64,000 bases of DNA, from the NCBI GenBank assembly GCA_054600435.1, contig BAAIJX010000003.1, forward strand, positions 682,001 to 746,000, read 5' to 3'. Below the pieces are notes generated by a model. The model searched no databases, was not told where the DNA came from, and worked only from the letters and a program-made list of their open reading frames with translations. Position 1 is the stretch's first letter. The number at the start of each line of letters is the position of its first letter. Below, one piece after another: positions 19,313-52,646 of this stretch. A program made the position numbers and the translations under genes. The DNA comes from Neophaeotheca triangularis (taxonomy: Eukaryota).

Positions 19313-20857
19313 ATGGCAACCCCGGAAGCGGTTGGCGCACCGCCAGCTGTTGCAGAAGAGCACGCGAAGAAAGAAGATGCATCGGAACAACTGATCGATC
19401 CATACAATGTCACGGGCGGCGTCGATGAGCAGGGCAACGCAAAGGCAATTGATTACGACCGATTAAGAGACGTCTTTGGAGTTCAGCCCCTCACCGACGA
19501 TCACTTGAAACGCTTCGAACAGGTCACTGGCAAGCCTGCCCACCGATTGATGAGGAGGAAGCTGTTCTTCAGCCATCGCGACTTTGACAGAATATTGGAC
19601 GCATACGAGCAACATGGTACATTCATGCTGTACACTGGGAGAGGGCCGAGCAGTGGGAGCATGCATCTCGGCCACACTGTCCCTTTCCTCTTTACCAAGG
19701 AGCTGCAAGAGATGTTCGATGTCCCACTAGTAATCATGTTGACGGATGATGAGAAATACCTCTACACCCGCAACAAGAATCAAGGTGTGCAAAAGTCTGG
19801 CAACGCGATTGCAGACTTCATCACCTTTGCCCACGACAACGCAAAGGACATCATTTCCCTCGGCTTCGACCCCGCCAAAACATTCATCTATTCCGACTTC
19901 GAGTACATAGGCGGGCACATGCAGCAAAACATCACCGAGTTCGAGTCACTGCTCCCATATAACCAAATCAAAGGCGCTTTGGGTTTTTCCGACAGCACGA
20001 ACGTCGGACTCATTGCTTTCGGCGCCCGTGAGTGTGCCGCCGCCTTCCCATCCAGCTACCCCGAAATCTTCGGCTACAAGGACTACCGCGCACCAGAGTA
20101 CGACCTGGACGCCCTGCGGCCGCACAAGGCACTCGCCTCAATGCCGACGCTTATCCCTTGCGCCATCGACCAAGAGCCCTACTTTCGCATCCTGCGCGCC
20201 AACTGTGAGCGCATGACCCTTCCCTCGCCCAAGACGTCACTCGTACTGTCGAAATTTTTGACCGCCCTGCAAGGCCCTGGTGGCAAGATGAGCGCTTCCG
20301 ACGCCAACTCCGCCATCTTCATGTCCGACACGCCCAAGCAAATCAAGGACAAGATCAACAAGCACGCCTTCTCCGGCGGACGGGAGTCGCTGGAAGAGCA
20401 CCGTCGGCTGGGTGGAAACCCGGATGTGGATGTTGCATACACTTACCTCTCGTACTTTTTGGAGTCGGATGAGGAGCTAGAGGAACTGGCTACCAAGTAC
20501 CGAGCCGGGGAGATTTTGACTGGAGAAATGAAGAAGCGCTGCATCGACGAGTTGCAGAAGTTCGTCGGCGCTTTCCAAGAGAGGAGGAGCAAGGTCACGC
20601 ACGAGGTTATGAGGGAGTTCATGCGGCCGCGAAAGCTGGAGTTCAAGGGAAATCCTAATCCGCTGAAGCCGAAGACCGAGGAGACAAGTGGTACTGCGGA
20701 TGGCGCTGAAGGTGGCGAGAAGAGGGCTGATGGCAAGCTGACAAAGGGGCAGCGGAAGGAACTCAAAATTGCTGAGAAGAAGGCTGAGAAGGAGAAGGAG
20801 AAGCTTGCTATGAGGGGCAAGGGTGGTGAGGGCGAGCAGGCGTCAGATGGAGCGTGA
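19313..20857 (+). CDS. WRS1: Cytoplasmic tryptophanyl-tRNA synthetase
   Basis: YTGRGPSSGSMHLGH, LTDDEK, PCAIDQEPYFR, KMSAS, KINKHAFSGG. Confidence 0.96.
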   Translation: MATPEAVGAPPAVAEEHAKKEDASEQLIDPYNVTGGVDEQGNAKAIDYDRLRDVFGVQPLTDDHLKRFEQVTGKPAHRLMRRKLFFSHRDFDRILDAYEQHGTFMLYTGRGPSSGSMHLGHTVPFLFTKELQEMFDVPLVIMLTDDEKYLYTRNKNQGVQKSGNAIADFITFAHDNAKDIISLGFDPAKTFIYSDFEYIGGHMQQNITEFESLLPYNQIKGALGFSDSTNVGLIAFGARECAAAFPSSYPEIFGYKDYRAPEYDLDALRPHKALASMPTLIPCAIDQEPYFRILRANCERMTLPSPKTSLVLSKFLTALQGPGGKMSASDANSAIFMSDTPKQIKDKINKHAFSGGRESLEEHRRLGGNPDVDVAYTYLSYFLESDEELEELATKYRAGEILTGEMKKRCIDELQKFVGAFQERRSKVTHEVMREFMRPRKLEFKGNPNPLKPKTEETSGTADGAEGGEKRADGKLTKGQRKELKIAEKKAEKEKEKLAMRGKGGEGEQASDGA

Positions 20858-21078
20858 AGCCCGGGTTTAGGTGGTGAATGCTTCGAGTAAACGCAGCGAT
20901 ATGTTCCCCGCATGCCGGTAGGAAGTTGATGACAGCGTTCCAGCGGATTATAGTGGGTAGATTGGTAGAAAATTTTCCATCCACAATTGGCTTGCTTCTT
21001 CGTCGAATAATACGTACGGGTCTGAAGGCTGAAGGAACCAAAAAGCGAAAAGAAAGGGGAAGGGAAAAAAAAAAACAG

Positions 21079-21396
21079 AAAAAAAAAAAGACCGAGGAAC
21101 CCAGCGGCTAATAGCCAGAAGGGAGGAGGGTAAAGACCTCTTATTCAGAAGCTTTCATTTAAACTCCTTTTCACCCTTTTTCGCAACACCACCGTCCCCG
21201 CCTGAGCGCACACTTCCGTCCAGTGACGTACTTTGCTCAGACGCCCTACTCGGGATAAAGACGGTGCTGTCGCGGTTCGAACCCAGCACTGCCGTGAAAT
21301 CGAAGGGGGGGGCTATGAGCCTCCGCCTTGACCGCTGCGCCAGAGTTGGTTTCGAGGATTTTTGGGTACAAGGTTTGCCGCGCTGTGGTATATATA
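21079..21396 (-). ncRNA. Putative RNA polymerase III-transcribed structured RNA with a degenerate tRNA-like head (identity unknown)
   Basis: TATATA (21389-21396), A box TGGCGCAGCGG (21342-21332), B box GGTTCGAACC (21283-21274), long GU-containing stems, T11 terminator (21089-21079). Confidence 0.6.
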
Positions 21397-21686
21397 GTTT
21401 TGTTTGTTGGGGGGGTCCGTTGCTTGAGGGCGATGCCTTGGCCTCTTCCTCCTTGCATGGTGCGCGGTCTTTTTGCCGTCTGTCTTGTGGTTAGCCGCGC
21501 CTGGATATACTCTCTCCTTCGCTTTATAAAAGTATACCTCGACCTAAAACCTACCGCATCCGACATATACCACCATTCAACCTGGTGATCTCTGCGAGAC
21601 ATGAACCACAGCCGGACTCACGGCTCTTCGTCGCCCTTTACACTCATGAGAAAACCCATCAGCGCGATTGGATACATTCGATACCA

Positions 21687-22614
21687 CTACAGCTTGGAGA
21701 AAGTCGGCTTCCTCTTCTGCAACCCAGACATCATCGCAGCCTTGACATCCTCCGTCTGCAATTGCGAAGCGTTGACGACGGCCACATAGTTCAAACCTGC
21801 AAACACCAGCGTCAGCACCACATCCGCAACCACAATACCCACTCACTCCACACTCACCATCCGCTACGCTATGATCCCGCGAATAGTTGATAACCTCCTT
21901 GGTAGCCTGCACAGCCACGGGGCTCTTACTAGCCATCAACCGGGCCAACTCCAAGGCCTCGGCCACCGCCTCGCCCTTGCTACCACAAACCCGGCTCACA
22001 AACCCCACCCTCAGCGCCTCCTCGGCCCCAAACTCCCTCGCCGACAGCGCAACCTCCTTGACCCAGCTCATACTCACCCCGGCCTTGGGCAACCGCGACA
22101 GAGTCCCGATATCCGCCGCCAGCCCAATATCGACCTCCTTGACCGCGAAACGGGCGTCTGCGGCGCAGATGCGCACGTCGCAACAGGCCGTCATGTCGAT
22201 GGCCAGGCCGAAGCTGATGCCGTGCATGACGGCGATGACGGGTTTGGCGCAAGCCTCAATGGCCGAGATGTCCGCCTGGAAGGAGAGGATGTGGCGCTTG
22301 ATGGCGGCGGCCTTGCGAGCGGGGTCCGAGACCGCGGGTGTGGTGGCTTGTTCGGGCTCGCTGGCCAGGGCGCCGCTGGTCGAGGCGGCTTGTACGTCTA
22401 GGCCCGAGGTGAAGGCGCGGTCGCCGGCGGCGGTGAGCAGGATTGCTCGCACGTCGGGGTCTGCCGAGAGGCGGTTGAAGATGCGCGCGATGTCTTGCCA
22501 CATTGATTCTACGAAGGCGTTGAGTTTGGCTGGCCGGGAGATTTCCACTTGCGCGACATATTGGGAGGGGAATGTTACGTTGAAGTTGTTGTAGCTGTAT
22601 GTCGAGGACGACAT
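21687..22614 (-). CDS. Crotonase-family delta3,5-delta2,4-dienoyl-CoA isomerase, peroxisomal (intron 21797-21857)
   Basis: FTSGLD, KPVIAVMHG, KEVDIGLAADIGTLSRLPK, KSPVAVQATK; the spliced C-terminus ends PTFSKL (PTS1). Confidence 0.92.
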
Positions 22615-27323: not shown

Positions 27324-29390
27324 CAGGGGGGTCAGCGACGACCGAGCCAGAGCGCGGACGCACGCATGTGATAGCCTTGCTTCTGCGGCAATCCGACGGT
27401 CCAGATTCCAATTTCCAAGGCCCCTGTTGCGCATACTGCCACGCACATAGTAAAATAAGTTACAAGTACCTTGGGTACAATACAGTAAGGTACATAGTAG
27501 GCATTAATGCTGATCTGGCGTCTGGTCAGCTGCCATGGGATGATCCAACAGACGCCTGAGCGCCTCCCCCCGGATCTTGTTCGACCATTCGTCGTTGGGA
27601 GTAGGCACACGGTCGGAGGCTAAGGGAACTCAAGGTCGACTTTGCCAGGTCGGTAGTTCAGAGGCGACAAGCAAGAAGTTGCATGTGTTGTACATATCCA
27701 TGTTCCGGTTGAATCCGATTAAAGGTCTTATTACTACTACTACTACTCTTGTCTGTGGGAGCTTTTTCGGCGCCTTTGGCTTGCGCGTTCTAGCCCGCCC
27801 GTGTCCGCCCCGCCGAAGAGCCACCGCGCGGTGAAGCACGCAAAAACGCTAATAATTAAATAATTATAACACATAACGACACCTCATAACCGTTGCTGAT
27901 AGTCGAAAACGTCAAGCGAATGGGAGAATAATCATGTCCACGATTCAAAACGTTGTCTTTTAACCAGTTTTGCCAGGCGCCAACAAGAGGACCGCATTTC
28001 TGTCCCAAATCTCTCGCAGATCCTCATCGCAAGCATGTGACAGACTAGAACCCCTCCCTCCTGTCTCACGGGCATACAGCGCAGCGGACCAAACCCAAAT
28101 CTTATCGGTAACATTGGGTACGTACCCGAGCCACCGGCATCCCGGGCCCACGAAGCCGAGAAAAAAAAACCTCATGCCTACCGCTTCCGGCAAAAATGCG
28201 GGCAGGCCTTCTAGAAGCGCGCTGAAAAAGAGAAATTTGACTCGCCGTGGTCCACGAGAGCATTGTCACACAAGAGTCCAGCCAAAGTGTGCACCTGTTC
28301 GAAGCCACAAACTGAGGAGCACACGGAAACTCCCCACAACCACCTTGGGCGAAAACGAAATCACGAAAGAAAAAAAAAGCAATCGTACGCACCGACTCTC
28401 TCAACAAAGTCTCTATTGTCCCTCCAATCCCAAACCTCCGATGTCCATGCTGTCCACCACAACGAAAGGTCTAGACCGCCCCCGAGCCCCCCTTTCTCGT
28501 GCTAACCCCAGCTTCCCCACAATGAAAGACATCTTTTCCCCGGGGTCTCCACACTCCAATGCCTTGCTTGGGTACTAAGGTAAGGTACCTTATGTACCTC
28601 GATCGATGAACCAACCCCGAGGCAGCTGGATCAATCATTACCGCCGGGCGATGATCCCTTCTTCGCGAGGCAAGGTTCGGACTGTATACGATTTTCGGTC
28701 TTCTTCGCCAGGATTCCCTATTAGTAGTATCTGACGGCCGGCCTCTGGTGAGAGTCTGACGGGAGCCTGTATGAATGCTGAAGCACACGTTGCTGAACGA
28801 CACGTAATGGTACCTTATGTTACCTATCTAGGTAAGGTAGCTTGGTGCAAGTTGAAACTACCAAAGGGTCTATGCTAGGTGGTTTCAGGCTAAATCTAGT
28901 TTGCTGGGGTTGTGGTGGAGTGGACTTCACGCTCCCAGTGCTTGGGTTCACGTTCCGCAGCGACTAGGGTAGGGACTGGAGATGTTAGACCCGTGCATGC
29001 ACGAAGTGGTATATTAGCCGATGGGACTTCTCAGGCGCCAGGTATGATGCGAGGCTGGGAAGGATCTGGAAGCGAGTGGAAAATGGTTCTGTTGATGATT
29101 CGCGTTGTACATTCGTTTTTGGCTCAAAAGGCGACTATGCTATTAATGCTCTCGCTACTGCGACTACTGTGAAGGACTCTCAAGGCTACACCAGGTAATA
29201 CATGGCCCTCCTTTGCTGTTGATCGTCTGCTTCATTCTGCTCTTCTGACCCTGCCCTTTCCTCGGTGACTTGTAGAATCGAGCAAAGGCGCCAGCACTGG
29301 ACGATAGCTACAGGTGCCTCAAAAAGGTTCTCAAGCACGTCGCAGTCTACTGATGGCGCCCGCGAGCCCAGTGATTCCACTCTCGAGCCC

Positions 29391-37271: not shown

Positions 37272-38137
37272 GGTCAAATGGATAACCATCTTGACAGGGG
37301 GGTAGAGTAGAGGTGAGCGGAAGGGCTGCTGGACCTACTGTACTTGTGCTAGTTGTGGAAGTCAAAGTATCAGTAGGGAGGGAGTGGGAGAGATGCTAGT
37401 GGTCTCTGTGATGTTGTCGCCGTTGTTGTTGTTGTCTGAGGTTGAACGGCAAGATGTGATAAGGTAGTAGTTCCGTAATTAATAGATTCTAGGAGGTACC
37501 TATACCGTACCAATGCCGAGGTGCTTCGCGGGCTGTCAACCAACGTCTCCGCTTTCTGGATATGTAAGGTACCTTGCCTTATGTACCTCAAGATATCCTT
37601 GTCATGTGAAATCGGCCGCATCATCCAATCACATTTCTTTGAGATTAATCGAAGCAGCCAATTGTAGACATACGCTAGCCCCTTTTCTCGACGACATGCT
37701 GCTGTAGAGCAGCTAGAAATTCTATCCTCACGTACGCGTGCAACACCAAGTGCGCTACCGCTACAGGCTAACCACTGTGACGTCGAAGAACGGGGGCTCG
37801 AAAGCAGACAATGGACCTTCGGTAAGCTAATGGCTGGCCTTGACCCTTCTGGATGCTATCCAACGAGACGTATATCGAAATAGTGTACCTAGTTGCTTAA
37901 TTGGTGGCATTCACAAGCTCACTCCAGCATGTCAACACCTTCAACTTCACTACCTCCCAGCTCGAATGAGATGCAGCAAAATCCAGAATCCCAGGGCTTC
38001 AGCAGATCGGCATATCCACCGTGTGGCTACTCATGGGACGCTCCGTACACAAGACATGTCTACCGGAGAGCTCAAGCAAGATCATTCTTCTCCGCCACCT
38101 CGTCAGTGAAGACGAGAGCACGATGAAAAAAAAGATA

Positions 38138-38461
38138 TGTGCGCGTCAGCCAGCGGTAGTGCGATACTAGCGACACGGTGACGGTGAGCATGCGCAAGCA
38201 CAGAAGCTCACCGTCCGGTGCCAAAAATAAGAATAATCTTGAAGGTCCCGTAGGACCCTTTCAGAGATTAAACTGAAACTGAAAGAGGAAGGAGTCAGTC
38301 TCTGCATCATGGGTCGTTCCTTCCTGAACAGGCAACTTACAGAACAGATACTACACTTGATCTAAGCCAAAAGGCTGTCGAGTGAGGGTGTCATGTCAAT
38401 AAACTGGTGGAGTGTGGGTGTTGGTGTTGGGGGTCCGGTTTGACTTACCAAAGAGAGCTGG
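38138..38461 (-). ncRNA. U2: U2 spliceosomal snRNA with two spliceosomal introns (exons 38461-38449, 38374-38341, 38278-~38138)
   Basis: Spliced sequence CCAGCUCUCUUUG|CCUUUUGGCUUAGAUCAAGUGUAGUAUCUGUUCU|UUUCAGUUUAAUCUCUGAAA...; stems IIa, IIb, Sm site AUUUUUG, stems III and IV; ~190 nt mature; ends approximate. Confidence 0.95.
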
Positions 38462-50902: not shown

Positions 50903-52646
50903 CTAACACCTTACCTCCACCCCCTCCTTACTAACAGTCAAATACTTAACGCCCTTATACGGCTTAACCTCCGGGCCCAACCCGCGACTCTTCTTCGTAT
51001 CCAATAACAAGCTTTCGACTTTCAACCCACTGGGCAACCAGCCCTTGACACTAAACGACAGCGTGGCAGAAGTGGGCATGAGCTCGCGATTCTTGGCCGT
51101 GTTCTCGGCGTCAGAAACGCCATTGAGAGCGGACTTGAAAGACTTTGTGCCGGGGACTTCTTGATAAGCCGCAGGACCGTCTTCGTCATAGTCGTAAGTT
51201 GAGGCGCTCATGCTGTTGACCGCTCCGCTGCTGCTGTCGTCGGGGTTTTCGTCCAGCGGGCCGACGACGGTGCAGCGGAGTACGGCGCCGGAGGCTGTGA
51301 GGTCTTTGGCGGGGATGCGCCATTCAACATTGCCGTCGGCGGGGTTCCAGTGGGCTTCGCCGCGTGTGGGACGCAGTTCGCTGACGTTGCGAACACTCGG
51401 TGGTATGGGAATGTGGACGGCGAGGTTTTCAAGAGCCGGGGCTTTGGAGTCGCCTGAGGCGCCGGCTCGGAAAGCGCCAGCGCGGGTGCTGAGATTGGAT
51501 TGTAGGGATGCTGCGGCGGCGGAGCGGGAGCCTGAGCTACTGGTTGAGGGCAGGGAAAGGCGAACTTCGAAGTCGGTGCCGTTGGAACCTAGGCCGGTTT
51601 TCATTTCGATCGTGGCGGGGAGGTTGAGGCTGTTGCTTGTGTTTTGGTTGTTCGTCAGGGTGAGGGATGCCTCTGGGCCGAGGAGATCTGTTTCGTAGCC
51701 GCAAAGGGCGAAACGTCCGTCGGGTGGTATGAAGGACATAACACCTTCGCTTTTCCATTTGCTTAATCTGACGCATGGATGGAAGACTGCCCTCTCCATT
51801 ACCTGACGTAATTGGTCCCCTCTATTAAACATGCCGCCTCCCTTTCCTCCCGTAGACATTGTAAGCAGGAGATCAGGCGTCCCCGACACCTTGCTCGTAA
51901 AAGCAACGCTACCATACGCAAACGCCGAAAGTGGTCTCCCAGAGGGCGCAAGCGTGACCTGCAGTGATTCGACCACGTCCACATACAGCTCATTACTCGT
52001 ATGCCTGACATTACTCCTCCGCCATGGGATAGCCGTGCCCTGGTTCTGCGGTGGGGGTTGCCGCTGCATTCCACTCCCAAAAGCTGTGTTACTCCCAGAC
52101 CCCGCTCCCAGCGCTGGTGTTGTTCCCGGTAGCCCGCCGAGCAAGTTTTTGAGCACACCCGGTCCAGTCTCGACAGAGTCGCGCAGAATGTTGGCCTCGC
52201 CTTGACAAATGACACCCGCGTCGGCCATTTCGGCCAGTATTTGCGCTACTATGTCATAGTTTGCGGCGATCTTGCTGGCGAGGAGAGGGCTTCCGAGGAA
52301 CTCCTCTAGGGCGTCGGCTACCCGGTGTAGGAATTCGAGGATTAGGAAGGGTTCGACGTCTGTGGAATTTGGCGCGAGGAATAAGAGGTTGTCTTGTATG
52401 ATCGAGAAAAGCAGCGTTGGAGGGTTGGTGGAGGACAGGTATATCAGGCTAGGGCGAGGTGAGGGGTGCTGAAGGTAGAGAGGCAGGAGAGTAGAGGGTG
52501 CTGGAGGGCGTCCGTTGTAGACATGGTCTAGCACGGGGTTGCTGATGAAGTAGTGTCAGATAAAGGAGAGCATATTGGCTAGGGATACAGAATGTACTTA
52601 CGTACTTGTGCTCGTCGAATATGTAGATTGCCTCGATGGCGGCCAT
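50903..52646 (-). CDS. APM3: AP-3 adaptor complex mu subunit (intron 52542-52605)
   Basis: IEAIYIFDEH, LEFLHRVADALEEFLG, IPWRRSNVRHTSNELYVDVVE, FHPCVRL, SFIPPDG, KPYKGVKY. Confidence 0.92.

Follow-up and report, generated by a model that had tools for sequence, protein, structure and literature searches.

A probable new lineage-specific, tRNA-derived Pol III small RNA gene between two convergent genes of Neophaeotheca triangularis

Described Pol III units and the candidate locus

In rodents, BC1 RNA is encoded by a single Pol III gene, has a 5' stem-loop domain that derives from tRNA-Ala and is the source of the ID elements (PMC4923876), and its structure comprises two stem-loops, a long one at the 5' end and, behind an A-rich region, a short one at the 3' end (PMC3440375). 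Statements made here on this and the other described systems refer to excerpts of the cited papers. In Aspergillus fumigatus, the AfuSINE2 elements, one unit of which is of tRNA-Met origin, measure 140-493 bp, occur in low or single copy, carry an oligo-T tract, form no cloverleaf according to the excerpt, and are transcribed in five of eight cases (PMC5063351).

Leaders that contain an A and a B box are also known from yeasts. The first 84 nt of RPR1 have been called a "tRNA-like promoter" leader, the A/B-box leaders of snR52, RPR1 and Zod1 are described in the same excerpt as not foldable into a tRNA, and in Yarrowia orphan RUF70 RNAs are located behind tRNA-Trp genes (PMC2566860). In Neurospora, Pol III produces the major milRNAs; milR-1 to milR-4 are Pol III-dependent and end in T clusters, some milR loci contain putative A and B boxes as well as TATA-like elements, and milR-4, which is transcribed together with two tRNA-Ala genes, requires RNase Z (PMC3547838).

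The candidate described here is situated on the minus strand of a 64,000-nt stretch of the N. triangularis genome (hereafter, the window), and from its sequence we regard it as a probable new, lineage-specific, tRNA-derived Pol III small RNA gene. It resembles BC1, AfuSINE2 and the RPR1/SNR52/ZOD1 group in kind, and no sequence was found to be shared with any of the compared systems that could be tested. BC1, as excerpted, has internal A and B boxes, a tRNA-derived 5' domain refolded into an extended stem-loop, an A-rich middle and a small 3' stem-loop; the head of the candidate is likewise predicted to form one hairpin, and an A-rich linker follows its junction domain. Unlike the candidate, BC1 is about 150 nt long, originates from tRNA-Ala and has no three-way junction in the published descriptions consulted, so that the resemblance is one of architecture only, with no sequence relation. 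Moreover, BC1 is the source of the ID SINEs, whereas the candidate is single-copy within the 64-kb window.

AfuSINE2 shares with the candidate a 5' tRNA-related A/B-box region without a cloverleaf, followed by a tRNA-unrelated body ahead of an oligo-T tract (PMC5063351, excerpt). In contrast, AfuSINE2 has degenerate boxes and target-site duplications of 4-14 bp, while the boxes of the candidate deviate little from consensus and no duplication was seen at its flanks; the tRNA-Met-type AfuSINE2 unit printed in the excerpt, compared by eye, is AT-rich and unlike the candidate. The layout of RPR1, SNR52 and ZOD1 in Saccharomyces, in which an A/B leader that is not a tRNA drives a downstream RNA, is similar to that of the candidate (PMC2566860, excerpt), but the downstream RNAs are RNase P RNA, a C/D snoRNA and an orphan RNA, respectively, and no such Rfam family was detected in the candidate. 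Similarly, milR-4 and the tRNA-Trp-RUF70 units combine a tRNA-type promoter, a downstream RNA that is not a tRNA and an end in a T run, as the candidate does (excerpts of PMC3547838 and PMC2566860). Their leader, however, is a real, processed tRNA, whereas no tRNA is called in the candidate, and RUF70 RNAs are about 70 nt long and multi-copy and the milRNA hairpins simple, in contrast to the branched domain of the candidate.

The intergenic locus, its promoter boxes and its terminator

The candidate unit occupies the middle of an 829-nt gap between two convergent protein genes. On the plus strand there is a class-I Trp/Tyr-type aminoacyl-tRNA synthetase gene (19313-20857; Pfam PF00579, 1.1e-19), which has no intron and encodes 514 aa, and on the minus strand a gene of the enoyl-CoA hydratase/isomerase (ECH) family (21687-22614; PF00378, 3.7e-38), whose stop codon is at 21689-21687. 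The unit lies 221 nt beyond the stop of the synthetase gene and about 290 nt beyond that of the ECH gene, distances that leave room for the 3' UTRs of both. The ECH gene contains one intron of 61 nt (21857-21797, GTGAGT...CTGAC...CAG), and the mechanically listed 345-aa open reading frame therefore runs through the intron; its second exon terminates in ...RKPTFSKL, a C-terminus of the peroxisomal targeting type. Together with the compact genes and the U2 snRNA gene of the window, this intron gives the DNA the look of a filamentous ascomycete. On the plus strand, at 21029-21101, a 7-nt direct repeat (AGGAACC) flanks a purine-rich tract of about 55 nt that includes both A11 runs, and this bracketed tract may be the scar left by slippage or by an insertion, or may belong to the synthetase gene's own 3'-end signal.

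Type-2 Pol III promoters carry an 11-nt A box with the consensus TRGCNNAGTGG and, some 30-60 nt downstream, a B box with the consensus GGTTCGANNCC. The minus strand of the gap contains the sequence TATATATA at 21396-21389, a putative TFIIIB/TBP site located 54 nt upstream of a candidate A box, TGGCGCAGCGG, at 21342-21332. This A box agrees with the consensus at eight of the nine specified positions, which makes its description as a consensus A box in the first-pass annotation slightly generous, since the box is present and one base off. A candidate B box, GGTTCGAACC, follows at 21283-21274, separated from the A box by exactly 48 nt; it is near the consensus, and the spacing falls within the range given above. 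Re-derivation of the coordinates placed the TATA element, the B box at 48 nt and the T11 run where they had been reported.

With the TATA element at about -30, the transcription start would be near A21367, which leaves a predicted 5' leader at 21343-21367, drawn from the sequence and from the geometry of Pol III promoters. The A box would then stand about 25 nt from the start, a distance at the long end of the range for tRNA genes. At the other end of the unit, a putative Pol III terminator and its back-up consist of two T11 runs (21089-21079 and 21075-21065) separated by CTG, and a terminator-like site is also predicted on the minus strand, where a terminal stem-loop (21091-21105) abuts the T run directly. 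The nearest TTTT upstream of the T11 run on the minus strand is at 21531, that is, beyond the TATA element. The absence of an internal T5 run, which had been listed among the features of the unit, is true and carries no weight, given that 3739 of the 6373 minus-strand windows of 278 nt are free even of T4.

To what extent such a layout would arise by chance was estimated with dinucleotide shuffles. When both boxes are defined loosely, 0.88 A/B pairs are expected per window, so that the pair by itself is meaningless, and with a strict B box instead the expectation drops to 0.057 per window. When a loose A box, a strict B box, a TATA element 25-75 nt upstream and a T6 run within 400 nt downstream were required together, one instance was observed on both strands of the 64 kb and none in 300 shuffles, which do not reproduce how rich intergenic DNA is in T tracts and TATA and are set here against a site selected post hoc. 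Of all loose A boxes on the two strands of the 64 kb, only that of the candidate is followed by a B box at a distance of 25-110 nt, and two of the five runs of at least eight T in the window are at its putative terminator. As judged from the sequence, the arrangement of promoter and terminator supports a tRNA-type Pol III unit, improbable by chance. All five of these T runs are on the minus strand; two T9 runs, at 28169 and 28378, lie about 200 nt apart in DNA that looks intergenic, and no Rfam match was found there.

Predicted RNA structure, related modules and homologues

The region between the predicted start and the B box has features of a tRNA without folding as one. Read by hand, the hairpin GGAGG-CUCAUAG-CCCCC at 21324-21308 resembles an anticodon arm, and its 7-nt loop has U as the second base, followed by CAU. 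In the predicted fold, the head (21277-21355) forms no cloverleaf: it is a single long, imperfect hairpin that pairs the A-box side with the nucleotides just ahead of the B box. The free energy of the head is -30.9 kcal/mol on the minus strand (z -1.55; 14 of 200 shuffles), and its z on the plus strand is -2.46. ARAGORN, run with default settings and with -ps, with or without introns, called no tRNA at the candidate, and at thresholds of 70-80% it returned implausible calls only (six settings in all). Checking the possible registers by hand, we likewise found that acceptor and T stems do not form, as had been noted before. The registers examined included those with a CAU or AGC anticodon, a long variable arm or a 16-nt intron, and in every one the acceptor and T stems failed.

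The part of the predicted RNA with the strongest structural signal starts with the final base of the B box. In the minimum free energy (MFE) fold, a 93-nt domain (21182-21274, minus strand) forms a three-way junction. Its lower stem joins 21274-21260 with 21196-21182, with 14 of the 15 positions paired (one pair being G-U), and one G.G opposition at 21267/21189; in the MFE fold this stem is extended by G-U pairs, for 15-18 pairs in all. It encloses a small hairpin, CCC-GAGUA-GGG (21254-21244), and a second stem of 21243-21235 with 21207-21199, in which nine of nine positions pair (one G-U) and which holds an inner CGUC-ACUG-GACG hairpin. The 15-position stem, the small hairpin, the 9-bp stem and their junction, all proposed from the sequence at first pass, were checked by hand and are reproduced by the MFE fold.

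Over 97 nt (21180-21276) this domain reaches -49.2 kcal/mol, compared with -33.5 ± 3.5 for shuffled sequences (z -4.45; 0 of 200). On the plus strand the same DNA gives -34.9 kcal/mol (z -2.67), the minus strand being 14 kcal/mol more stable, in agreement with the preference for that strand previously read from GU pairs. The whole 292 nt has a z of -2.46 (2 of 200 shuffles). The remaining 3' part is different: an A-rich linker and a 3' hairpin domain (21119-21178) are weakly structured, and the 3' domain as a whole (21090-21181) is no better than chance (z -0.95; 32 of 200 shuffles). The second hairpin domain of the earlier description corresponds to these weakly structured 3' hairpins, which do not rise above shuffled sequence.

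Two further segments of the locus are related to the head. Immediately upstream, at 21406-21511 on the minus strand, a decayed tandem copy of promoter and head is colinear with 21396-21305. It holds TATAT, GCGCGGC-AACC, a degenerate A-box-like stretch, CTCA-AGC and a C7 run, and no B box. The local alignment score of the two segments is 34, compared with 22.3 ± 4.1 for shuffles, 6 of 500 of which reach 34, and the 23 nt of the duplication nearest to the TATA element score 26 compared with 11.8 ± 2.6 (1 of 500). By hand count, the upstream copy retains five of the nine specified A-box positions and the downstream copy eight of nine. Boxes kept close to consensus in spite of a lost tRNA fold, beside a sister copy that lost its own, hint, in this single comparison, at selection on promoter function. 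Both copies have in common the motif TATAT(A)CCA..GCGCGGC(A/T)AACC, which might be an upstream promoter element or a mere trace of the duplication.

The second related segment is a 3' tail module (21097-21132, minus strand) composed of a C-rich stretch, CCCUUC and GCUGGGUUC, the last being equal to half a B box. The tail hairpin GGCUAUUAGCC resembles GGCUCAUAGCC of the head, and the alignment of the tail (21132-21097) with 21315-21279, the portion of the head that runs from the loop into the first half of the B box, scores 29.5 compared with 20.3 ± 3.2 (4 of 500). On this sequence evidence, the locus appears as a unique and very stable junction domain set among tRNA-like modules that are related to one another; such duplications of modules can also be read as typical of the turnover of tRNA-derived repeats. 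A longer transcript beginning at the upstream TATAT (about 21480), the 5' AAAAAGACCG of which would pair with the 3' CGGUCUUUUU, was considered and set aside as the principal explanation, because its start would be some 140 nt away from the A box and because, by our estimate, chance gives about 0.16 matches of 10 nt in this stretch.

Comparison with known RNA families identified no relative of the candidate. At Rfam gathering thresholds the only match in the whole window is a U2 snRNA gene at 38135-38388. At E<=10, the interval 20900-21600 has no match to tRNA, SRP, RNase P/MRP, U6, 5S, snoRNA, Y or vault RNA, and the three matches to miRNA families that were obtained score 15-20 bits against cut-offs of 85-95 and are noise. 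No relevant family was therefore returned at either level. A hand search of the candidate found no convincing C/D, H/ACA or P4-type motifs. Together, these scans and the hand search bear out the earlier statement that hallmarks of SRP, RNase P/MRP, U6, 5S and C/D RNAs are missing. The U2 gene is on the minus strand (99.9 bits, Rfam RF00004), has an 81-nt insertion where the model has 20 positions, and is immediately followed at its 3' end by a T8 run that starts from 38133.

Neither was a second copy of the candidate found in the 64-kb window (blastn, word size 7), where the best non-self match covers 27 nt with an E of 0.057. A metagenome scan with the synthetase recovered 80 loci, the best at 77% identity. 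None of the 80 has an ECH neighbour beside the relative of the synthetase, and searches for the candidate with blastn and nhmmer gave no match in any of them at E<=1. The 25 fungal-like loci have no tRNA genes, and a loose A/B regular expression applied to the first 25 loci gave five weak pairs, the one inspected (L009) being unrelated. A single-sequence covariance model of the junction domain, searched against the window and 25 of the 80 loci (217,583 bases), retrieved only itself (122.9 bits) and a chance match of 15.5 bits (E 0.77) at 51224-51279 of the window. These absences say little about conservation, because the lineage is seemingly isolated: the synthetase is the sole member of its own 90%-identity cluster in a collection of 15 billion proteins, and close relatives of the lineage may be unsequenced.

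Competing explanations and significance

With moderate confidence, we propose that the locus is an independent type-2 Pol III unit, specific to its lineage and preceded by a TATA element, that gives rise to an RNA of about 280 nt. Following established Pol III biology, both boxes (A, 21342-21332; B, 21283-21274) would be bound by TFIIIC, with TFIIIB positioned over TATATATA (21396-21389). Pol III would initiate near 21367 and terminate in the T11 run at 21089-21079, and the non-coding product, about 280 nt long, would carry oligo-U at its 3' end. Its first 90 nt or so would be what is left of a tRNA-like sequence whose CAU loop resembles that of an anticodon; this remnant, which no longer folds as a tRNA, would have been retained as a promoter and, in the RNA, would refold into one long hairpin. 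The body would consist of the very stable 93-nt three-way junction, the A-rich linker and the small 3' hairpins. As to its role, our guess is that of a young, lineage-specific small RNA in which the junction domain is the part that counts, and the bound Pol III complex may in addition act as a barrier between the converging Pol II genes. A more elaborate version, in which the RNA is a functional, lineage-specific Pol III riboregulator that arose from a tRNA-Met-like gene converted, in the manner of BC1, into a hairpin-headed RNA of about 280 nt, with a junction that binds a protein and a decayed sister copy adjoining, so that the gene would be seen at its very origin, seems unlikely to us.

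The first-pass annotation had offered a novel ncRNA, a milRNA precursor or a SINE-like source gene, and the lack of a known family, the Pol III layout and the strand-specific structure sustain this set of options but do not separate them. The SINE-like or tRNA-derived option gains some support from the decayed tandem copy and from the repeat in the tail. Carried to its end, it would make the locus a decaying tRNA-derived repeat, either an old or tandem tRNA gene or a SINE-like insertion, which is functionless, whose transcript, if any, is unstable noise, and whose boxes are still legible owing to a recent last duplication. Such an origin would account for three related partial modules within 430 nt (21511-21406, the head and the tail at 21132-21097), for the missing cloverleaf, for a head and a 3' domain that do not exceed shuffles on the minus strand and for the absence of a homologue from every metagenome locus fetched, and low-copy, tRNA-related, SINE-like units of this size do occur in A. 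fumigatus (PMC5063351, excerpt). We nevertheless hold it, although the main rival, to be a possible but rather doubtful explanation. Both boxes stay close to consensus and the TATA element is perfect, yet the tRNA structure is gone and the A box of the sister copy is lost; the junction domain is exceptionally stable and strand-specific; and the unit is single-copy in 64 kb. As for insertion, no direct repeat of the SINE target-site type was seen to bracket the unit, and the unit ends in T11, without the A-rich or LINE-related tail of a SINE.

If instead the unit were the Pol III-driven precursor of milRNAs of about 19-25 nt, the head would serve as promoter and perhaps be cut off by RNase Z or RNase P. 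The Neurospora milR loci are a precedent (PMC3547838, excerpt), and the 14/15 stem placed directly after the B box, as well as the second tRNA-like fragment in the tail, would suit such a precursor. The stable domain, however, is a branched three-way junction whose lower stem has 15-18 pairs and not a long simple hairpin, for which reason the milRNA appears to be the weakest of the three options first proposed, and since the head is not a tRNA, a cut by RNase Z or RNase P is not expected; we judge this explanation very improbable. The elements could also act only in the DNA, as a TFIIIC- or Pol III-bound separator of Pol II genes, or be chance motifs in a T-rich, GC-rich terminator region. The unit is located exactly between two convergent genes, its T/A-rich tract would also suit Pol II 3'-end formation of the plus-strand synthetase gene, loose A/B pairs are expected at 0.88 per window, and the effect of Pol III complexes on neighboring Pol II transcription in yeast is the topic of PMC4228148 (excerpt). 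Against this stand the full combination of motifs, absent from all 300 shuffles, and the consideration that a TATA element at the right distance, a T11 terminator and a 97-nt domain with a z of -4.45 would all be superfluous in a pure factor-binding site, and we find this account distinctly unlikely.

The set of Pol III transcripts of fungi is poorly charted outside yeasts. If the proposed small RNA gene is expressed, it would add one orphan Pol III RNA to the fungal set and would be a clear case of a tRNA-derived promoter outliving its tRNA, and the decayed paralogue alongside would permit a direct contrast between a selected and a drifting copy. If it is a relic only, it would be an unremarkable outcome of the turnover of tRNA genes. 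In both cases the locus cautions annotators that 829 nt between two convergent genes may conceal a Pol III unit that standard tools miss.
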